Positions 14,660 to 26,612 of a stretch of 64,000 nucleotides of DNA are shown here, piece by piece (the stretch's first letter is position 1; every line of letters starts with the position of its first letter). The notes below the pieces were generated by a model, which saw only the letters and a program-made list of their open reading frames with translations, was not told the DNA's origin and did no database searches. Source of the stretch: Epithemia pelagica (taxonomy: Eukaryota > Protista > Bacillariophyta); NCBI GenBank assembly GCA_946965045.2, contig OX337242.1, positions 868,001 to 932,000 of the forward strand. The letters are read 5' to 3'. A program made the position numbers and the translations under genes.

Positions 14660-15424
14660 GGGGACGAATGTCTATCCCGAACCGTATTGGGCAGAATATC
14701 TTTTTCGCGACCAATATCGAATAAGGCAAAGTTAGTCGCTCCAATTATGCGACTACGAGAAGTTGAATCCGGCGGAATTGTGTCGCGAGCCACGCCCTTG
14801 GGCTATAGTATAAAATGTTGAACCTAAAAATATCACCGTCTTGGAGAAGCCTCGGATATTTCCCTCGGTATCAGTGTCCACTGCTTAGCTGTTTTTTGTC
14901 TGTGCCATCATTTTAGGTTCCCAGGTGGACACAGACATCATTTTTTGCTTTTGAGACAAATAGAAATGATCAAATGGCAAATTGGCACGCATACTCAGCT
15001 GGAGTTTTCACAGTTTGAAACAGACGCATGCCCAGCAAGCGGCCGTGCGTGGATAACTGCTGGTTGCTCCATAATTCATAATGACAAGCACACAATTCTT
15101 TTCTCTTGTTGCCGAAGCACATCGTACGAATGGCATTCCAGGTGAGTGTGATCCGTTGCCAATTGCCATGACAATTACATAGCTCATGCTCACTGATCAC
15201 TGACACTTGTCACTTTTGTTTGCTCTGCTCATGGGAAGAGAGGCGATCATCTGTTGTGTCTCTGGGTAGCTCATTACGTGCCATTCTACACTACATGTCG
15301 AAATGACGGATTTTTGATAACTTTCATTCGATTCATAAACAGACTGCAGACATTGTTTTCTTTATATACTAGGAGTAGAAATAGAACTCAAGTGCTATTC
15401 ATTCGTAGAGTTCAGTGCATTCTG

Positions 15425-15589
15425 CGAAGAAGAAACTACGAACACATCCTGAAGCACGTGTCGCTTCGCGCCTGTCCAAGAGATCGCACGTCGGTCACAA
15501 GAATCATGTCCGTTGAGGAGTTCACAAATTCCGAATCCTACAATCAAACAGATCTTTTTGCCGAAGGCCTCAGAAACCGAAAGGCTCCA
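15425..15589. repeat. Split direct repeat B2 (165 bp)
   Basis: Reads identical to 15854-16018 (cgaagaagaaactacg...aaggctcca). Confidence 0.92.
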
Positions 15590-15609
15590 GGGCGGGTTAG
15601 GGGAATTTT

Positions 15610-15853
15610 TAAACTAGCTAAGATCGTTGCGATCGTCTTGAACTCGTCTTTAGGCCTGCAAGAATGCTGGAATCCAGAAGAGTGAGCTCTTCTCAAAACA
15701 TCGGCACCTTTGCATTCGGTCATTCGAATCGTAGAGTCCGAGGGATCAAAATCGGATGCTCGCCTCGCGACGAGGCGGTGCAGTCGCACCTCGAATGTCA
15801 GTCGCCGAAGTCTGTCCAGCATCGGCCACGTCACTCCACATCAGTACAGACAA
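15610..15853. repeat. Split direct repeat A2 (244 bp)
   Basis: Reads identical to 23227-23470 (taaactagctaagatc...gtacagacaa). Confidence 0.92.
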
Positions 15854-16018
15854 CGAAGAAGAAACTACGAACACATCCTGAAGCACGTGTCGCTTCGCGC
15901 CTGTCCAAGAGATCGCACGTCGGTCACAAGAATCATGTCCGTTGAGGAGTTCACAAATTCCGAATCCTACAATCAAACAGATCTTTTTGCCGAAGGCCTC
16001 AGAAACCGAAAGGCTCCA
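15854..16018. repeat. Split direct repeat B1 (165 bp)
   Basis: Reads identical to 15425-15589 and abuts A2 directly, mimicking the circle junction. Confidence 0.92.
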
Positions 16019-16065
16019 CACCATCCGTCCCGAAGTAGCAATCCAACGATGGTCCATGTCGGATC

Positions 16066-17424
16066 TTACAAGTCGAGGTGGAGTGTGTTGGGGAAGTGAA
16101 TGAGGGGTCCTGGGCCATTGAAAAGGTTTTCTTCCGGCGATTCCATCGCCGTTTCGGTATTTGTCTGGAAGGCTGGATCGATGAGGTTGTCTAATCGATT
16201 GCAAAGTCGTTCCAGGGATTCGGTGCGGGAGGCGACGGTGGAACTGTCGAGGTGGCGAAAGTCTTGGGTGGTCAGCATCAGCTGAGCCATTCCAGACGTC
16301 CATTCAAGAACTTGTGGACGGATGTATCGCATGAACGCTGAGGAGCTCCATCGTCCCAAGATCATAATCTTGGCGACGGAACAATCAGCGAGAAAGAGAG
16401 ACATGGCCGCGCCGGATCTGATTGAATGAGTCCCAATGTCCATTGGGTGGTAGCCGAATTTTGTGTAGCCTCCACCGAGAGCGCAGGTTTCGCGAAGTAA
16501 ATTGCGCAAGTCTTCTTGTCGAATGAATCGTGGTGGTTTTGATGGTTTGGTTGGGTCGAACCAACAATTCACCGGCGTGTCTGGTGGGGCATTGGGGCAA
16601 AAGTGCAGAATGCGCCGAATCACACGTCCCCACATGAGAACAGGATCGAAGACGGGGTCGCTGGTTCTGCTCTGTGTGCGTGTTTCGGCTTTCTTGTTGT
16701 TTTTCTGATCGATAAAAGTGACGGAGACGTAAGCAGCCAGTTCGTTGAATCTTGGGTGGTCGGCTCGGATGGTAACATGTTTGTCTTTGGTGGTGAAGAC
16801 AATGTTGCCGATTGTGAGGAGTTTTGTTTTGCCTCTTGATGGAACGGTCAAGTATTCGCAGCTGCGCATGGCAAAGAAGAATGCGCAGCCGGCCAAATCA
16901 ACAATGTATGCGTCGAAGGTGGTGAATTCGAAGATGAACTTGGTTGGATGGCCTTTCGTTTTACGGACACAACAACGGACCCACATGAATCGCAAATGTT
17001 TTATTGTGATGGCCTTCTCTCTCTTTTCCGGGGGGTCAAGATTCTCCCACGCGCGCTTGAGGGGGGCGACGATGGGGTGGAGGTGACTGCCGTCTTGACT
17101 GTGGCAAGGGCTCGGCCGGTCGTGATGCCGGAAGCTCGATGCCAAGTCTCCAATGGCTTGTTGGAGAGTGCTCGCTCGAAGAGGGTTCGAGCTGTCGCGG
17201 TTGCGTGTGAACTCGGCTTCCCGGAGGCGTTGGAGGAAGGAGCATGCAACACTGGCTCTGTGGTTGGCGGCGTGGAGGGATTCGAGGAAGGGGTCGTGAC
17301 TGAATCCAATACCCCGCAAGTGCGTAAGCCATCGGTCCCAAGTTCGGTCGCGCTTTTGGTGGGATCCTTCGGTTTTGCCGAAGAAGATCCGGGAAACGGA
17401 GGCACGATGGAGCAAATCCAACAT
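16066..17424 (-). CDS. Tyrosine recombinase (ORF3) of the Ngaro element
   Basis: FFFAMRSCEY (catalytic R), HSIRSGAA (HxxR), ILGRWSSSAFMRYIR (W and catalytic Y). ATG at 17424; overlaps the 3' end of ORF2 by 424 nt. Confidence 0.93.
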   Translation of the reverse strand: MLDLLHRASVSRIFFGKTEGSHQKRDRTWDRWLTHLRGIGFSHDPFLESLHAANHRASVACSFLQRLREAEFTRNRDSSNPLRASTLQQAIGDLASSFRHHDRPSPCHSQDGSHLHPIVAPLKRAWENLDPPEKREKAITIKHLRFMWVRCCVRKTKGHPTKFIFEFTTFDAYIVDLAGCAFFFAMRSCEYLTVPSRGKTKLLTIGNIVFTTKDKHVTIRADHPRFNELAAYVSVTFIDQKNNKKAETRTQSRTSDPVFDPVLMWGRVIRRILHFCPNAPPDTPVNCWFDPTKPSKPPRFIRQEDLRNLLRETCALGGGYTKFGYHPMDIGTHSIRSGAAMSLFLADCSVAKIMILGRWSSSAFMRYIRPQVLEWTSGMAQLMLTTQDFRHLDSSTVASRTESLERLCNRLDNLIDPAFQTNTETAMESPEENLFNGPGPLIHFPNTLHLDL

Positions 17425-20381
17425 AAGATTTCGCTCGGGAGTTGTTTGATGCGAAAATTCTGAGGAATCTGTGAAGCATAATTTTCGTGAATGAAAAAGG
17501 TGAGTTCTCTGTCAGATTTTTCCCAAGCTCGAGATAAGATGTCTGACACCTCGTTCCTTTTCCCTGGTATGTGTTCCGCCTGGAGAGCAAACTTGTGGAG
17601 CATGACCAAGTGGGTCAGTTGTGCTGACACTTGGATGTGGAGTGGCTTGTCGGTTCCAAACGATGTCTTGTGGAGCCATCCCACGGCTGAAGAGTTGTCG
17701 GATAAGGCGAGAACGGCGGCATCTTCGGGGATGTCATGAAAGTAGCAATCCACCAAGATGGAGACCACAATCGCAATATACTCAAGAAGGTTATTCGATC
17801 GTTTTTCTTCGTCGATCGAGTGTGTGCGGAGAGTGTCGATGGCAGACTGGTGGATCTGCATCCGCCAGGCTCGGCCAGTGGATACCGAATATCCACCCAT
17901 TCCCTCTGGACAGGAGTCGGCGTGATAGAGATGGGTGGGGACTCGACACACGAGACGGTTCAGCGAGATTCCTTCGTGTGAATGTGAGAGAAGTGTTCTC
18001 CACATTTTCAAATCAGCAATCAACGATTCGGGGACGTTGTACCGGTAAAACGGTGGCGGCGTGTCACGGTTCGATCGTTTGGGATTGTCGGAATCTTGTT
18101 GTTGTTGATCGGCTGTTTTGGCTGCCTGTTTCTGTCGATATGTCCGTTCGATGAAGGTCTGGTATTCGCGGAGGCGACCGAGCCAGTGGGAGGCAAGGGG
18201 GATGCCCTTGATTGCATGTAACAATTTTCCATTGAGGCTTCGGAGATTGGCGAAAGTTGTTTTTCGTTTATCCAACAATTCTTGGACTTGTTTGGTCCAG
18301 CCGACCTTCTTCTCATACGGGAGGCGAAGAAGGAGTCGTCTGGTGTCAATGGTCCAGCCGAGAACACGTTGTTCTTCGACTGGGGCGCCCTCTGCCTTCA
18401 GTTTGTCGTCTTCCAGCATTGCTTTGCGGGTGATGGGTTCGTCGTCGGCGAGAGGTCGAGTCATAAGATGGACAATCAACGGAACGATGCATGGGCAGCG
18501 ATGAATGTTCTCTTCAGTGGCCAGGAACAATTGGATCATGTCATCTAAATAACAGTCATGAAATCCGTGGGGACGAGGAGGAACCATGACGGCTAGTTCT
18601 TGTGCTTGTGCAATGGGAATGTCTTCGGATAGGAATTGGGGCGGGCCAATGCCTGACTGAAGTGGGGAGACACAACAATCAGGCGTCCATTCTTGGAGAT
18701 CGGCAAGATCATTGCAAAGATCTGTCCCGATTTCGGAAACGACGGAAAACTCGGCGGGGTTGGCGGAGGCTCCGAAAGTCAGTCGAAGGTTCAGATGGGC
18801 GAACAAGTTTGACGGGTCGATGGTGATATTCCTGGCGGCCACTTCGCCGTCGCCATGGATGCGACGATAGGCCGATGCCCAATCGAATTTACTCAACAAA
18901 ATCTTCTCGGTGGGGTGGTGCCAGCGTAATACAACAATTTGATGAATGATGCGGTCAATGCAATGGCCCATCACGAGGTCAATTAGCTGTTCCTGATCGA
19001 TGAGGTCGTTTGTGGAGGGACAGAAACCGAGAGAGAAGGATTGGTCATGGGTCAAGCGGTCTTTGGGAATCAGGTCGCCGTGAGCGTCGATTCCCAACTG
19101 GTGAGCCACTCCCATCGGGCTGATACGACTATGTTTAATCGATTTTGCACAGCTAAATGTGATTGGGAGGGAGTAACCACGAGAGGCATCCTTAAGCAAG
19201 ACTTTGGTCAGTGCCTCAGGATTCTTCTTTCCTGAGGCATGGTTTCCATACTCAAGGATTGCGCCGTTCTCAGCTCGCCGTGCGGTCTCATCTTCCACAG
19301 CTGTGAGGGGGTAGGAGACGCCGTGAGAGATAATGGACTTGAGGCGAGGCCAATAGGGATGGCCTGCCAGTAAGGGCTCCAAGACTCCGGCTGGCCGGAA
19401 TTCGGATCCTGGGGAGATGACCGAGTATGGATAGGCGTCAAGGAGACGCTGCATGTCCATATCATATTCATCAATCAACCGTGAGTTGAATTCAGCGTTA
19501 GCGACAGCGACTTCATCTGGATGAATGTCGTGGCGAAACGGGGAATCGTGTGGTGTATCTTGCTCAGTCTGGGAGATGGCAATGATGACATCCAACGATA
19601 GGGGATGGCTTTCTTGACGGAGTGCCGGAGGGAAGAGTCGGTTCGGGAAGATCTTGGGTACATCGTTCGGGAGGTAGGGCTTGGGATCATCATACTTGGG
19701 GAAAGGACGGGGCAATAGTCTAAACTCACCTAATAGTTGAACATCCGCGTTTCGAGCATCTTGTAGTCGTTTCACATTCCGGTGGAGAGGGCGTCCCGAG
19801 AAGTCAGATCCTTCAATCGCAGATTCGCTTCCTGGAAGAGAATTCTGGATTTGTGAGGATAGATTTGGGGGAAAATGGTCGGTGGTCTTGGGGGTCGTGT
19901 CAAGGGTAAGGAAACTTGAAGGGCGGAGAGCCGAATCCGAAGGGGCTGGGATCAACGAGAGCGAATCGGAAGGGGATAAAGTCTTGGGGATAACTGGAGA
20001 AAGCGAAGCCGGCTGACTTGCATCAAAAAGTTGAATCTTGTTGAGAGATCCACAGTCCGTTGGAAAACGCACATGTGGAGTCGTCGTCAAAAGATTTGTC
20101 TTGGGGAGAATTTGTCTATGGATCGCAGCAGCACAAGCATCTGGATGCCGTGTGTGGTTTTGAGATGGTTGATGGGGAAGGAAGGGATTTGCTGTTGAGG
20201 GAATGGATGGGATGTCATGGGATGACAGGGAAGCGAGAGGTGGAAGAAACGATGGAACTATTATCGGAGCGGATGAGTGAACTATGGGGAGACGATGGGA
20301 GAAGTCAACGGGTTGACTGTCGACGTTCGGTGGTCCAGGAAGGGGAGATATGGAGGAAGTGACAATCAACCCTTCATGGCG
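17001..20381 (-). CDS. Reverse transcriptase / RNase H (ORF2) of the Ngaro element
   Basis: KDRLTHDQSF, SKFDWASAYRRI, LTFGASANP and CYLDD (RT); HADSCPEGMGG, NNLLEY, SDNSSAV and HIPGKRNEVSDILSR (RNase H). No ATG until 19460; in frame with ORF1. Confidence 0.93.
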   Translation of the reverse strand, partial: RHEGLIVTSSISPLPGPPNVDSQPVDFSHRLPIVHSSAPIIVPSFLPPLASLSSHDIPSIPSTANPFLPHQPSQNHTRHPDACAAAIHRQILPKTNLLTTTPHVRFPTDCGSLNKIQLFDASQPASLSPVIPKTLSPSDSLSLIPAPSDSALRPSSFLTLDTTPKTTDHFPPNLSSQIQNSLPGSESAIEGSDFSGRPLHRNVKRLQDARNADVQLLGEFRLLPRPFPKYDDPKPYLPNDVPKIFPNRLFPPALRQESHPLSLDVIIAISQTEQDTPHDSPFRHDIHPDEVAVANAEFNSRLIDEYDMDMQRLLDAYPYSVISPGSEFRPAGVLEPLLAGHPYWPRLKSIISHGVSYPLTAVEDETARRAENGAILEYGNHASGKKNPEALTKVLLKDASRGYSLPITFSCAKSIKHSRISPMGVAHQLGIDAHGDLIPKDRLTHDQSFSLGFCPSTNDLIDQEQLIDLVMGHCIDRIIHQIVVLRWHHPTEKILLSKFDWASAYRRIHGDGEVAARNITIDPSNLFAHLNLRLTFGASANPAEFSVVSEIGTDLCNDLADLQEWTPDCCVSPLQSGIGPPQFLSEDIPIAQAQELAVMVPPRPHGFHDCYLDDMIQLFLATEENIHRCPCIVPLIVHLMTRPLADDEPITRKAMLEDDKLKAEGAPVEEQRVLGWTIDTRRLLLRLPYEKKVGWTKQVQELLDKRKTTFANLRSLNGKLLHAIKGIPLASHWLGRLREYQTFIERTYRQKQAAKTADQQQQDSDNPKRSNRDTPPPFYRYNVPESLIADLKMWRTLLSHSHEGISLNRLVCRVPTHLYHADSCPEGMGGYSVSTGRAWRMQIHQSAIDTLRTHSIDEEKRSNNLLEYIAIVVSILVDCYFHDIPEDAAVLALSDNSSAVGWLHKTSFGTDKPLHIQVSAQLTHLVMLHKFALQAEHIPGKRNEVSDILSRAWEKSDRELTFFIHENYASQIPQNFRIKQLPSEILCWICSIVPPFPGSSSAKPKDPTKSATELGTDGLRTCGVLDSVTTPSSNPSTPPTTEPVLHAPSSNASGKPSSHATATARTLFERALSNKPLETWHRASGITTGRALATVKTAVTSTPSSPPSSARGRILTPRKRERRPSQ

Positions 20382-23192
20382 TCAAGAACTCTCGTACGCT
20401 GTGCGATAGAAGTTGTCCATCTCGGTCTTCTTGTTGTGTTTCGCTGGATCGTCGTGACAAAAGCTGCATTTTGTACCCTTCTTGCAAAATCCTTTTGAGA
20501 AGAGAATGTTGCAAAAAGGAACAGTCTTGCCGTCTTTCTCGATTGATGGCATGTTCTCCAAGATATGAGGAGGGAAGATCTTCGGATAGGACTTGTTCTT
20601 GGGTAAGCGCCAATTGGAGGGGGAAGCGAAAGTCGCAGCACTCTTGGGGAGTGAGGATTCCTGATTTTGCTTCTTGTTGGAACTGCTTGGGTCATCAGGG
20701 TTGGAAGATCGTTTCTTATTGCCTTGTTTTTGTTGTTGGGCATAAAATTTTGCTTGTAAGGCCGCAGGTAAGCCGCCTAAGGGAGCACCCAACTTGACAT
20801 TGAAGATCAGCCAATTGACACGTTGTTCTAATTCATCAAAGGCAACGTCAGAGAGAGAAGAGGCTGAACTCAAAGATCCAACAAATTCTTGTATGGCTTC
20901 GTCGAGACCGAAAAGCATCTGACCGTAAAGGAATTCGTTGGCGGAACTCAACATTTTGGCCATGATTTTCGTACGATTGCCATGGAAAAAGTTCAAAAAC
21001 TTGAGGATTTGATTGCAGATCATGGAGGTGGGACCGCAAAGGCCTTTGGCGCAGGCCCAATACGAACGCAATTGTTTCTCAAACTCGTCTTCGGTACGTG
21101 GAAAGAACAGGTTGTGGTCCGAATAGAGTTGTTGCATATCTTTACTCTGTTTCATCTCGTTGAGATGACAGAGAGAGGCGTCGTGAATTTGTTGTCGTAT
21201 ATTCTTGTCTAACGTGTGTGAAGAGTCAATCCCTGGAATCGCGTACGGATCAAAAGAGAAAGGGCTGAAGCCTCCGGGAGAGGCTTCAGATCGCCAGCGC
21301 AAACCAAGGCGTTGGATCACCGTGCATTGGCCGAGAAGAATCGTGCACACGTTGTCCATGGGGTCGAAAACTTCTGCGACAAAAGACTCGAAAAAGGTTG
21401 CCGAGTTTTTCGATTTCCAAACTTTCTTCACAACATCTGGGAGATCGGTGGGAAGAGAGGTGAAAGATCTGTCAATAACTCCCAGGCGAAGTTGTTTTTG
21501 GGCTATCTGTGGCATATCTCGGAACATACTTTTTGATTCGGGTGAAGTAATGTCGTCTTCGTTCGAAATCTTCTTCTGGGAACCAACTTCACGGAGGCAT
21601 TTCGAAATTAGAAACATCTCTGGGGAAACAAAATGCTCGATGCCTTCATCGTCAATCATACGAACACCATTGGTGGGACGAGGTGGGTCGTTTGAAGATG
21701 GAAAGGAACAATCAACCTGGGGCGGAGAAGTTTCTTGAGGAGGGGTGGTTGTAGTTTCAATTGGATTGGGTGACGAGTCGGGGGACGAAAGTAGTTCGGG
21801 AAAGACTCGGTGGCGATGATCCAACAATGTCATGAATGCAGATTCGGTGTCCTTTGGGATGTTGGGAATGACGACGCGAGGGAGTTCAACTTGAGAGCGA
21901 GTGGTCATGACCCAAAGAAAGCGAAACATGTGTTCAAGTGCAGAAAGAAAAGGAAAATCAATCTGCATGCCTTTGAGTTTCGTCTCCAGCGGCATATCGG
22001 GCGAGTGGGACCACCAGTGCTTGAGGGTCAACTCATACAAGTTGGCAGCGATGTCTTCAAACGAAAAGGAAGAGTCAACTCGGGCTGGATTCATGTACTT
22101 GATCATCATTCCGGCAAAGGCAGGAGGAATGAGACAAAGGTTGGAGTAAGTGAATCGGTCTGATTCTTTGGCTTCAGAGGAGGGAACTGGGTTCATCTTC
22201 TTGAACTGACTCCCATTGAAAAAGAAGCATGGGGTCGAATCTTTGCCTGGAGGCAAGTCAAGTTTTCCAACACATTCTTCGAGGATCGCCGAGAAGGATG
22301 GGACGTGCTTCAGGGTCTCTTCTTGGAGGAGAGATGAGATATCGTCGACGTCAATCTGGATGGGAGGCGCATCAAAGGAGGGACGATCAAGAGCGAAGAA
22401 TTCGATCGACGGGTTCACCAAAGTACCACAATCCACTGGACAACAAAGATTATGGAAAATCATGGGACGGCCGGAACGAGAGGATCCAAGAAAGGCCAAC
22501 GAATTGGTCTTGATCTTAGCAGAGATCCAAACATGAAGTTCTTCAGGAGTCGATAGGCGGATGAAACTTGCTTGGAGCTGTGTCCAAAGGGAAAGGTCGC
22601 GAGCAAGAGAGATGTGAAAAGGAGTCACAAAGGAATCACACCAATCAACCGGGGCAATCGTTGCAACATTGTCTAATGCCTTGGGGAGAGTCTTGGCCGA
22701 AATCAGATGGAAGTCGTCAGCGAAGTAAAGTTCGAAACGACGAGCGACTTTAATATCGGACTTGGACAGAATGGAAGAAGGAGAGGAGCGATTCGAAGCG
22801 GTAGCTGTCGAAGGACTCTTGTCTCCTCCACCGCCAACAAGAGAAGAGAGAACGTCATCATTCGATTTGGCTGTACCACCCGTGGGGGAAGGAGGAGGCG
22901 GAGGAGGCGTATCGTCAGAGACGGAGATCTTGGACTTGATCTGGTCGATCTTCTTCTTCTTGGCTTGGGAAGCGGCAACGAGAATCTCCTGGAGTTCAGA
23001 GTCCGAGAGGGCACTGTAATCCACATCCTCAAACAATCCACCATCAGACTTCGAGGCAAAGGCGGAGGGTTTCTGGTCCTGCGAATCATCGGGCTGAGAA
23101 ACGACGGGCGGCGAACCTCCAGAGGCGGCAGACGAAAGGGGGATCGTCGGCGACTCCTTGTCGAAGAAAGGAACAGAATCCTTAAAGGTCAT
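20382..23192 (-). CDS. Gag-like ORF1 of the Ngaro element with C-terminal CCCH zinc finger
   Basis: 936 aa, uninterrupted; CNILFSKGFCKKGTKCSFCH fits C-x8-C-x5-C-x3-H; lies immediately inside repeat A1. Confidence 0.85.
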   Translation of the reverse strand: MTFKDSVPFFDKESPTIPLSSAASGGSPPVVSQPDDSQDQKPSAFASKSDGGLFEDVDYSALSDSELQEILVAASQAKKKKIDQIKSKISVSDDTPPPPPPSPTGGTAKSNDDVLSSLVGGGGDKSPSTATASNRSSPSSILSKSDIKVARRFELYFADDFHLISAKTLPKALDNVATIAPVDWCDSFVTPFHISLARDLSLWTQLQASFIRLSTPEELHVWISAKIKTNSLAFLGSSRSGRPMIFHNLCCPVDCGTLVNPSIEFFALDRPSFDAPPIQIDVDDISSLLQEETLKHVPSFSAILEECVGKLDLPPGKDSTPCFFFNGSQFKKMNPVPSSEAKESDRFTYSNLCLIPPAFAGMMIKYMNPARVDSSFSFEDIAANLYELTLKHWWSHSPDMPLETKLKGMQIDFPFLSALEHMFRFLWVMTTRSQVELPRVVIPNIPKDTESAFMTLLDHRHRVFPELLSSPDSSPNPIETTTTPPQETSPPQVDCSFPSSNDPPRPTNGVRMIDDEGIEHFVSPEMFLISKCLREVGSQKKISNEDDITSPESKSMFRDMPQIAQKQLRLGVIDRSFTSLPTDLPDVVKKVWKSKNSATFFESFVAEVFDPMDNVCTILLGQCTVIQRLGLRWRSEASPGGFSPFSFDPYAIPGIDSSHTLDKNIRQQIHDASLCHLNEMKQSKDMQQLYSDHNLFFPRTEDEFEKQLRSYWACAKGLCGPTSMICNQILKFLNFFHGNRTKIMAKMLSSANEFLYGQMLFGLDEAIQEFVGSLSSASSLSDVAFDELEQRVNWLIFNVKLGAPLGGLPAALQAKFYAQQQKQGNKKRSSNPDDPSSSNKKQNQESSLPKSAATFASPSNWRLPKNKSYPKIFPPHILENMPSIEKDGKTVPFCNILFSKGFCKKGTKCSFCHDDPAKHNKKTEMDNFYRTAYESS

Positions 23193-23226
23193 GATGAAAA
23201 GGCAAAGGTAGAGGCTGAAAGCAAAG

Positions 23227-23470
23227 TAAACTAGCTAAGATCGTTGCGATCGTCTTGAACTCGTCTTTAGGCCTGCAAGAATGCTGGAATCCAGAAGAGT
23301 GAGCTCTTCTCAAAACATCGGCACCTTTGCATTCGGTCATTCGAATCGTAGAGTCCGAGGGATCAAAATCGGATGCTCGCCTCGCGACGAGGCGGTGCAG
23401 TCGCACCTCGAATGTCAGTCGCCGAAGTCTGTCCAGCATCGGCCACGTCACTCCACATCAGTACAGACAA
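23227..23470. repeat. Split direct repeat A1 (244 bp), 5' end of the Ngaro element
   Basis: Reads identical to 15610-15853. Confidence 0.92.
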
Positions 23471-25453
23471 AATTCGTTGCAGATCTCTTTTCTGTTTTGA
23501 GCATGGCAATGACTCTCAGTTTCACCATGAACACAAGCAGCTCTCACACGCTACAGCTGCAACTTTTGACTCTATGAACTGATAGACATGGAAAGTAGGG
23601 TGTGGCAAGAGCAAGAGGGCTTCCCATCTATTTGAAGCAAAAACAACAAAGTGTTCGGTCATTGAGAAATGAGATGATGCTACGACCTATGACGATTGAC
23701 GATAGTGAATCATCTATCCTACAGAAGACATGAAAGCAACCAACCAACAATCAAACAACAAAACAATTACTCCTACATCAACAAATGAGACGGGTAAGAT
23801 ACTCCAGTTGACATCAAGCGGCTTGTTCCTAGTCTACTCGTTCAACAAGAGACAAGCCAAAGGATCATGCATGAACAAGAGGAAAGATTGCAGCAGTGAT
23901 GAGTGAGAAGAAAGAAAAAGAAACAAGAAGATTAGAAATAAGCCACAGTAGTGAGAAGTGAGAAGCAGTTCAGGTTCAGCCCAGCATGTTGCATCCATTG
24001 TTCTCACCTCACGTCATGGTCAACCATTTGGCTCGGTTTTTGGTGTTTTGTGACAGACGAGGACGGGAGGGTTGCCCAAAAAATTTGAATCGTGGTGACC
24101 AGAGGGCAACCACCAACCGTCAACTGTCACATGCACGCTGGCCTTGCTCCAACCCTGAGGAATTTTATTGGGTAGACAGACAGACGAAAAACATAAAATG
24201 CTGGCTGTGTCCACTTGGGAACCTGTGAAGGTGGCACAGACAAAAAACAGCTAAGCAGTGGACACTGATACCGAGGGATATTTTATACAGTAATGAACAA
24301 CATCTAATGAAATACTTTGATTAAGCGCATCGTTACTTATTAAAACTTTAAATGTCACACAATCTCTTTTAAGACGACCTGTTTCCATCCCTCATCCCCC
24401 ATTCTCGAATTCGAAAATTCGAAAGGAAGTGGAGGGACGAGCGAACGAGGATTGTGGTGGGTATGCGTATTTGGCCTATCGAACAGAAGGAGGAAGGAGG
24501 AGATGTTGACAATTGACAATGATCAGTAGTCTCAAGCAGTTTTGCCACGGTCTCGCTACGTGACTGCTGGTGCTGTCATTTGAACTAAGTCCTTCGTGAA
24601 AAGAATTAAATCTACTCAAAAACACTTCAAAAGTGGGACGGTGAAAGTAGATAGGTAGAAGGTAGATAGAGCCCGAAGTCGGCGCTGTGAATTCTTCATT
24701 TGAGAGGAGCAGCTAAGTTCATTTCCATCCCAATACAGTCGACGCATAAATCAAGCCGTCTTCTTCCTCGAAAACGAAGGAGCATAACAAATGGTGACAG
24801 GTTGTGTGAAACGAAAAATAAAAATAACAGACAACGATGACCCATGAAAGCAAGTCGTGAGTCACCTTCTTGACCGTGAAGCTGCGTCGTGCAACGACAT
24901 GGACGAAGTTCCAGTAAGACAAGGTCTCTTGAAAAAGAGCAAAGAGCTCTCACGATTCCACCGTGTTCTCGTGACGGATCGTGGATGGATACGATGCCAA
25001 CAGTCGTGCAACCGTCCAACCGATGGAACCGATCATCGTCGATCGCCATTCGCCATCCTCATCTATCTCAAGGTTGACCTAAGAATGGGGTTCTCTTTTC
25101 AACCCTAGCGGCCACCTCACACGTGAGTCTTGAGTCACTCATATCGATAATCGATAAGCCTGAACCCATGATTCTAGGCCATCTATATTTGTTATGACAC
25201 ATCATTCCAAACTGATGACATTGTACTTTACATTTCCTTAACAATTCTTCTGTCCTCTGTCCTCTGCGAAAAAATCAAGAGAACCTCGCGAGCAGAAGGG
25301 TGACAAAGAGAAAAATCACCACTAAAACGAGACCCGCCACCGCCAACGGCATAGATTCTATGAGCTCTTTTGGATCTGGGGGAAAGGAGAGTCTCTCGAG
25401 CTCGGGGTCTCAACTCTCAACTCTCCCACGACCCACGTCGACTCTGACTCTTC

Positions 25454-26612
25454 TGACTCCCGATTAGGCACACCCAGTTTTTTAATCCGGTCGCTCTTCG
25501 CGACCAACATTTTCATTTTCGTTTTTTTCGTTTTTGATGAAAATTTCTGGTCAAAATGAAAATGATCACGCCGGCCTTCTGTGTCACCCTTTTGAAATCT
25601 TGTGAGCAGACGTGCGCGCTTTGACCGTTGGTCTTCTCGTTCGTCCTCACTTTCCCCTGCCAATCCACACAATTTTTTCTCGTCTTCTTCTCTTCTCCCT
25701 CTTTCTCATGGACAATGGACATGCACCATGACCATGCATTCTCTATCATGCATACCACTGACATTTTTGACATGAAAAGACCATAGATAGAGTTTGGCTG
25801 TGCCCCATCCCTCCTTTTTCTAGTGTTTCTTTCTCCTGTAGTTCTCGGTTTAAAAGCACACCCTCATCCACAACACCTTGTCTATGCTGTAGGCATGTCT
25901 CTTTGCAAGCAATTGTGACCTTGAGCTAAAACTACACCTTACACCCCTATTTGGAATGACCATCTTCGTGCTTTTGTTATGGAGCCTGCAGAGTCCCAAA
26001 TGCTGCTCAAAAACACCAGCATGCTCCGGGCAAAAAAAGAACAAGAGGAGCAAGTCGACAACACAAGCAACTGAAGACTCAATCTGAGCAACAGATGATT
26101 TGCACCACTAATTCTATCTCACTGAGCTTTAAAACTCTATAGAATACTAAAAGAATCCTACAATTGATTTTAGCTGCCGCCCATTGAATGGACCAAAAAT
26201 GGATGTTATACGGCACAAACACATGGCACTATGGCAAAGAAGTGAGAGAACCTATCCCAAACCATTGTCCAATTCCAATGCAGGGGTTAAGCTATGTGGA
26301 ACTTACCATGCTGACAAAGATGAGATGCTCAGTGCTCAGTGATGAAGCATGAGGCCGTTTTGGTGTTGTTGTTGGTTTGGTCGTTGCCCCATTTTGTTTT
26401 CTGCGTGGGTTTTGTGGCCTCCGGACCGGACCGGAGTCTTGTTCAGCAGCACGCCTGCCAACTTCCAACTGCCATATCACGCAAGCCTTTCCAGAGGGAT
26501 GTGAAATTTTTTTCTAGACAAGCTGGAGTTTTTGGTGAGCGGGACAGACCATGAAAGAGTTGACAGGCAGACCACTGGTGCCAAAAAACTGGGTGCGGTT
26601 AATCGGGAGTCA
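25454..26612. mobile_element. Degenerate non-autonomous TIR element (~1.16 kb)
   Basis: 30-bp inverted repeats tgactcccgattaggcacacccagtttttt (25454-25483) and aaaaaactgggtgcggttaatcgggagtca (26583-26612), 27/30 complementary. No TSD and no intact ORF recognised. Confidence 0.6.

Follow-up and report, generated by a model that had tools for sequence, protein, structure and literature searches.

In a 64,000-nt stretch of the diatom Epithemia pelagica (contig OX337242.1, positions 868,001–932,000; hereafter the window), the minus strand carries a retrotransposon of the Ngaro type, in which a gag-like frame (ORF1) is followed, across one in-frame UGA, by the frame of reverse transcriptase (RT) and ribonuclease H (RNase H) (ORF2). 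Inspection of the sequence suggested that this UGA is probably read through with the aid of a stem, yielding a Gag-RT-RNase H fusion. This explanation is favoured because it accounts for the kept frame, the UGA-C and the 9-nt spacer in two lineages, and for the match to the alphavirus cassette. A minority of ribosomes would read through the UGA, helped by the predicted stem 9 nt downstream, and would make a fusion beside abundant 936-aa Gag. The fusion was calculated to be 2,063 aa, in agreement with the ~2060 aa given in a preliminary description of this DNA. Stem formation, its boost to readthrough, the rate and the amino acid inserted at the UGA are the parts of this model that we infer.

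The stop, the spacer and the predicted stem

The features of the gag/pol junction are as follows:
20385..23192, minus strand: ORF1, Gag-like, 936 aa; ATG at 23192; its CCCH zinc finger ends 23 residues before the stop
20382..20384, minus strand: single in-frame UGA, candidate readthrough codon, in the context UCU-UGA-CGC
20373..20381, minus strand: 9-nt spacer between stop and stem
20361..20372, minus strand: 5' arm of the predicted 12-bp stem, with an in-frame UUG at 20369 inside
20310..20321, minus strand: 3' arm of the predicted stem, closing a 39-nt loop
17001..20381, minus strand: ORF2, 1126 aa; Ser/Pro-rich linker, then RT and RNase H region

The minus strand was read again and gave GAG AGT TCT TGA CGC CAT GAA GGG TTG at the junction, the same codons from which the preliminary description had concluded that ORF1 and ORF2 share a frame with one UGA between them. 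After the TGA (20384–20382), ORF2 continues the frame of ORF1 from 20381 to 17001 over 1,126 codons. Its first in-frame ATG is at 19460 (codon 308), as expected from the earlier statement that ORF2 has no AUG for about 300 codons. An out-of-frame AUG at 20377, which opens a 3-codon frame, was observed in the spacer; it is absent at the counterpart in the relatives L047 and L048 described below.

The stem that had been proposed could be reproduced. The arms 20372–20361 and 20321–20310 pair over 12 bp with one G-U and a 39-nt loop, starting 9 nt past the stop (+10). With spans under 90 nt and G-U at half weight, it outscored every other uninterrupted helix when 7,946 start positions of the element were compared. 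When the 110 nt past the stop were dinucleotide-shuffled 3,000 times, an equal helix starting at +4 to +16 never arose, the threshold being derived from the observed helix itself. On the weaker side of the case for the stem, the fold of the whole 101 nt was less marked (z = -1.77, 13/200 shuffles equal), and in a z-score scan of the whole element the segment at the stop (z = -3.1) was outside the top 15 of 532. The pair probability of the stem was 0.5 in a 101-nt segment, 0.8 in 211- and 501-nt segments and 1.0 when the fold was begun just past the stop. An in-frame UGA followed by C, with a predicted 12-bp stem at +10, corresponds to the alphavirus-type cassette, in which a 10–12-bp stem lies 8–12 nt past the stop. 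UGA-C alone is not diagnostic: 2 of the 11 listed host stop-to-stop ORFs also end in it.

It was also observed that the 3' arm can pair alternatively with bases just after it (20314–20304, minus strand), forming a short hairpin and possibly a competing fold. Other strong local structures were predicted on the minus strand at 20520–20476, 16405–16331 and 18700–18626, with z of -4.8 to -5.1 for the first two. One of these structures covers the codons of the zinc finger, some 90 nt upstream of the stop.

Gag ends in sister copies and relatives

A UGA at this place might be a nonsense mutation or a frame accident in one copy, or the host might decode UGA as tryptophan or selenocysteine, and the existence of a related family with a fused frame (see below) would fit such a reading. 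Collapsed contigs from three DNA runs (X1–X3, all from one study that may include the source of the window) showed no difference and no gap relative to the window over 20270–20540 (X1, X2) and 20270–20420 (X3), so that stop and frame are kept; the X1 contig differed from the window at 10 of 3,037 places. ORF1 ends at the same residue in two sister copies, P0143 and P0141, the latter with 14 changes over its 936 aa. The preliminary description had pointed to sister copies as the place where a sense codon would reveal a simple nonsense mutation, and every one of these keeps the stop. The finger was reached in 30 of 42 close ORF1 proteins, and all 30 then stop 23–28 residues later, with 12 different endings. 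In 150 distant ORF1 representatives the finger was found 114 times; the protein ends 20–30 residues after it in 88, 31–60 residues after it in 20, later in 5 and earlier in 1, and none of the 114 has a tail after the finger long enough for RT. The UGA of the window is not a private mutation. As weak evidence in the same direction, no fused homolog of 1,972–5,000 aa was present among 7,013 candidates. The host code appeared standard as far as 14 long ORFs show: they contain 121 TGG codons, several end in TGA, and internal TGA is absent by definition. Against selenocysteine, a search of 15000–24000 with Rfam at E up to 1 gave no match, SECIS included. Mutation and alternative code are thus largely excluded, and we regard this as the most improbable of the explanations considered.

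The close families were compared by protein only, with frame and stem read from protein ends. For 12 of 60 ORF2 proteins the called start was the codon matching the window UUG in the 5' arm, and 11 of these 12 have the motif D-S-Q/R-P, which is encoded by the 3' arm in the window copy, where it stands one residue closer. The Q-to-R change in this motif would keep the pairing. Diverged families in the DNA runs could be aligned only over 20427–20521, short of the stop. No relative was found in a scan of viral contigs with three alignments or in a scan of genome contigs with the close-family alignment; a metagenome scan gave relatives at 27–37% only.

Fifty loci were fetched, and a gag finger was recognized in 17 of them (a CCCH-like match in L050 was dropped, reducing 18 rows to 17, as it sits after the recombinase). 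L047 and L048, which form one lineage with about 31% RT identity to the window element, have the in-frame UGA-C as well. Their gag ends 22 residues past the finger and is followed by UGA-CUG (L047) or UGA-CUA (L048), 9 nt, a bulged stem, and then 1,078 or 1,061 open codons in frame. The arms of the two stems are mutually identical, with loops of 29 and 35 nt, and their sequence is unlike that of the window. The stem of L048 was the stronger one, with 2 of 1,000 shuffles as good. In a FastTree tree the window element was joined with L047/L048 (support 94), and the -1 loci described next were joined with each other (support 100). Together with the stop kept in sister copies, UGA-C, a 9-nt spacer and a stem in an independent lineage support the readthrough interpretation of the preliminary description.

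L047, L048, L049 and L050 are eukaryote-type retrotransposon contigs inside two bacterial metagenome-assembled genomes, likely as contamination. For L047 and L048, filed in a cyanobacterial one, the splice signals suggest that eukaryotic contamination is the likely origin. Identical contig ends were seen in L003 (1–100 and 6498–6597) and L047 (1–293 and 7172–7465), which might reflect circular forms or collapsed tandem copies.

A different junction was found in 13 of the 17 finger-bearing loci, where gag ends at G_GAU_UUU and the -1 frame is open; 2 of the 17 were decayed. G_GAU_UUU is known as a site of frameshifting in pea enation mosaic virus (PMC5009743; here and below, statements on published work refer to the available parts of the cited texts). 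These candidate -1 frameshift cassettes, from lake-metagenome relatives (L001, L003, L004, L005, L008, L010, L017, L018, L022, L027, L037, L038 and L042; L003 is truncated where its contig stops), consist of G_GAU_UUU, a stop and a GGGGCAGAG-type stem with compensatory changes. We found no description of such a cassette for the DIRS order in the literature searched. A slip-plus-stem site was present in 18 of 35 loci examined (of 46, 11 without an RT start being left out), and 15 non-duplicate ones were aligned. At these 15 distinct junctions, 93% of the 135 cells are paired, and 10 double changes were counted. This covariation was above all 500 shuffles (0/500), a test that relatedness inflates, and above all slid controls; stem covariation was seen in the -1 group only.

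A third arrangement was exhibited by the P0036 family (protein only), where Gag, linker and RT are called as a single 1,895-aa frame that runs past the gag end without a stop. Its RT identity was 34%, and 4 of 10 members were full length; its linker contains a long internal duplication. Since the UGA, -1 and fused arrangements go together with a stem behind the gag end, the position of the stem appears to be a trait common to these relatives. The -1 relatives would reach the same low Gag-Pol ratio by a slip before a stem at the same place. The preliminary description is supported in its readthrough reading, but it missed the slip and the fused frame of the relatives and the likely role of the post-stop segment in making the recombinase.

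The ORF2 proteins called from the UUG position also suit another explanation, namely that pol is made separately by reinitiation or non-AUG initiation at UUG 20369, four codons past the stop, with the stem slowing the scanning ribosome. This UUG is in frame and has a G at -3, and the out-of-frame AUG at 20377 would be in keeping with it. However, the UUG lies inside a stem arm, where it would be kept for pairing alone, and L047 and L048 have no start codon at its place and no shared AUG near the stop. Initiation there would leave the shared frame of gag and pol unexplained, whereas the -1 slip and the fused frame of relatives point to a Gag-Pol fusion. Separate initiation at the UUG was therefore considered improbable.

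Several observations weigh against stem-aided readthrough. L047 and L048 are a single lineage whose identical arms provide no covariation, and the stem of L047 is weak, with 33 of 1,000 shuffles and 632 of 7,386 positions as good. The branch joining them with the window element has its SH support of 94 from FastTree only. In the close families, frame and stem are seen solely via protein ends; P0011 is without the D-S-Q/R-P motif, and a V-to-A change in 3 close-family ORF2 proteins would break one stem pair. In the window element itself, the pair probability falls to 0.5 in one segment, and UGA-CGC differs from the UGA-CUA/CGG consensus. Finally, the UGA and predicted pseudoknot of the Candida albicans element Tca2 failed to promote readthrough when placed in yeast reporters (PMC2194720).

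The post-stop segment and the structure of the element

Two further features are needed here:
17469..19729, minus strand: predicted 2,261-nt intron, G/GTGAGT ... TTCACAG/ (slashes mark the splice points), from a reading of splice signals
16066..17511, minus strand: ORF3, tyrosine recombinase (YR), overlapping the end of ORF2 by 511 nt

ORF2 residues 198–218 and 230–300, which precede the first AUG, contain motifs kept across families and in L047/L048 (RNxxRL..LG at 198–218, YLPND and SPF..). When this segment was compared with L047/L048, second codon positions were more alike than third positions (18 vs 7 of 28; 14 vs 6 of 26). The post-stop segment looks translated. Joining of the donor at 19729 with the acceptor at 17469 gives an open 684-aa linker-recombinase frame. 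All 8 loci tested have an acceptor in the recombinase frame no more than 10 nt from the matching place (donors were chosen by eye, and L008 and L023 are near copies), and the donor lies 217, 220 and 208 codons past the stop in the window element, L047 and L048, respectively. The conserved predicted intron would thus likely join the post-stop segment to the recombinase, fusing them into a 1,621-aa Gag-YR. Because the donor is downstream of the UGA, the amounts of both enzymes would depend on this single stop, and splicing would choose between them. On balance, we lean towards a two-step switch that makes all three proteins from one RNA: stem-driven recoding at the gag end, and then alternative splicing to RT or recombinase, with a stem that stays in place as the recoding module is exchanged among UGA readthrough, a -1 frameshift and a fused frame.

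These data bear on two other explanations. Pol might come from a separate transcript, starting at 19460 or at a near-cognate codon, or from a bypass of the stop that needs no local signal. Tca2 provides a precedent: its gag-pol junction contains a minor promoter and, in yeast, gave no local readthrough (PMC2194720). However, a start at 19460 would lose 307 codons, including the splice donor and motifs that persist at 30% RT identity, and 15 out-of-frame AUGs lie upstream of it; we consider this origin of pol unlikely, to about the same degree as initiation at the UUG. Alternatively, as these elements apparently use splicing and the stretch from the stop to the first AUG contains 15 YAG sites, the stop might be removed with an intron that has its donor in the gag tail and its acceptor in the pyrimidine-rich linker. 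Within the final 300 nt of gag no donor scored above 4/7, as against 6/7 for the 19729 donor, and the best gag-tail donors of L047 and L048 scored 5 and 4, with no strong site shared. Moreover, a region that is spliced out need not keep frame, spacer and stem, and removal of the stop in this way appears very unlikely. Readthrough of the UGA, with the predicted intron acting behind it, is preferred.

A second donor-like site, AAG/GTACG, was noticed ~120–140 nt past the first one at L004:491, L005:921, L008:2342, L010:2274, L011:347, L018:2879 and L042:2987. Stops in the RT frame follow it, and a short intron seems to be required in these relatives before RT can be read.

The site is hosted by an intact 8,046-bp Ngaro-type tyrosine-recombinase retrotransposon, with the following parts:
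15425..23470, minus strand: complete element (tyrosine-recombinase retrotransposon) of 8,046 bp, without a visible target duplication
23227..23470, minus strand: split direct repeat A1, 244 nt, 100% identical to A2
15841..16018, minus strand: split direct repeat B1, from repeat comparison
15610..15853, minus strand: split direct repeat A2, from repeat comparison
15425..15589, minus strand: split direct repeat B2, matching B1 at 97% over the called 178 nt; its outer limit is the element end, fixed by the empty-site joint

A direct junction of 15424 to 23471 in contigs from the three DNA runs set the element length at 8,046 bp; these contigs derive from the repeated flank and do not necessarily represent an allelic empty site. 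The split direct repeats are ordered A1 ... B1 A2 B2, and the ORFs run on one strand as Gag-like, RT/RNase H and YR (RT by fold, YR by motifs and weak Cre matches), both as in Ngaro elements. The element was filed as Ngaro-type by structure only, and the trees compare its RT with unnamed relatives. The genes flanking it are eukaryotic, and it is a young jumping gene in a eukaryotic genome.

The label Gag-like for ORF1 follows PMC8547959 and is based on position; its finger gave a Torus/CCCH match (E 1.4e-4) below the cut-off, and an Atlas search of ORF1 returned no usable match. The model of ORF2 (pLDDT 90.6) matched the RT folds of caulimovirus, MuLV, foamy virus and Ty3 (best E 8.7e-10), while its RT had no match in Pfam or PDB sequence searches. 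A check for a methyltransferase in ORF2, a domain that Ngaro elements lack in contrast to DIRS and PAT, likewise gave no Pfam match, but Pfam also missed the RT. Only a short, Ser/Pro-rich stretch of ORF2 follows RNase H, and it overlaps with the YR frame. Tyrosine-recombinase motifs were recognized in ORF3, which also matched Cre weakly, both by sequence (E 0.053) and by fold (E 6.5e-4, low-confidence model).

The surroundings of the element (15000–15424 and 23471–24000) are highly repeated, variable flank. An inverted 95-nt pair (88%) at 14858–14952 and 24187–24281 may mark the two ends of a DNA transposon that encloses the element, and inverted 30-nt repeats at 25454–25483 and 26583–26612, 1.1 kb apart, perhaps belong to a small non-autonomous DNA transposon. 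Folded as single-stranded DNA, the empty target gave a weak fold (-7.4 kcal/mol, no control), and therefore no claim on hairpin targets is made.

Comparison with known systems

No readthrough in the DIRS/Ngaro order was described in the literature searched, in line with the preliminary description, although Repbase reports, Poulter and Butler 2015 and Goodwin and Poulter 2004 may mention it. In the available main texts, 'readthrough' or 'read-through' occurs 0 times in PMC8547959, PMC3266345 and PMC6681497, and 'readthrough' 0 times in PMC7192593; the available part of PMC12440569 uses it of transcripts only. How pol and recombinase are expressed in the DIRS order was not addressed in the literature searched. 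Ngaro elements have been reported in a diatom genome (bioRxiv 10.64898/2026.04.27.720831).

If true, our reading would add a retrotransposon order, and probably also a host group, to those with programmed readthrough; in the literature searched, none was described for either. It would give a compact and testable answer for the expression of pol and recombinase in the DIRS order, namely one leaky stop for both enzymes. The relatives are paired natural cassettes, readthrough and -1 slip with a stem in the same position, suited to side-by-side comparison, and would form a natural series on how one downstream stem drives readthrough or slippage. For annotation, such copies should not be called broken.

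Compared with Ngaro elements such as that of Cafeteria burkhardae (PMC8547959), the window element has the same A1-[ORFs]-B1 A2 B2 layout, the same order of Gag-like, RT-RNase H and YR, and the H-x-x-R and Tyr motifs. The available text on that element mentions no readthrough or frameshift, whereas gag and pol of the window element are in frame across one UGA. Its RT and YR are without a Pfam match, and a predicted intron links linker to YR. Ngaro elements are usually without ORF overlaps (PMC3266345), in contrast to the overlap of YR and pol seen here.

Gag-pol readthrough is already known in MuLV and has been proposed for Tca2, and readthrough as such is known in retroviruses and alphaviruses. 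Tca2 (PMC2194720) resembles the window element in having gag-UGA-pol in frame and a predicted 3' structure, behind a purine-rich spacer of 8 nt; unlike the window element, it is a long terminal repeat (LTR) retrotransposon. MuLV (PMC2194720, PMC3159437) shares an in-frame stop ending a zinc-finger Gag, a spacer of about 8–9 nt, a structure behind it and a low ratio of Gag-Pol, but uses UAG-G and a compact pseudoknot where the window element has UGA-C and a plain predicted stem. The closest cassette is that of the alphaviruses VEEV, EEEV and SINV (PMC3159437), with UGA-C, 8–12-nt spacers before 10–12-bp stems, a variable loop and the polymerase as a C-terminal extension. Their loops are 101–154 nt, compared with 39 nt here, and their UGA-CUA/CGG contexts were tested experimentally, while readthrough at UGA-CGC of the window element is predicted from sequence. 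Taken together, a known recoding mechanism is likely at work in a retrotransposon order where we found it undescribed.

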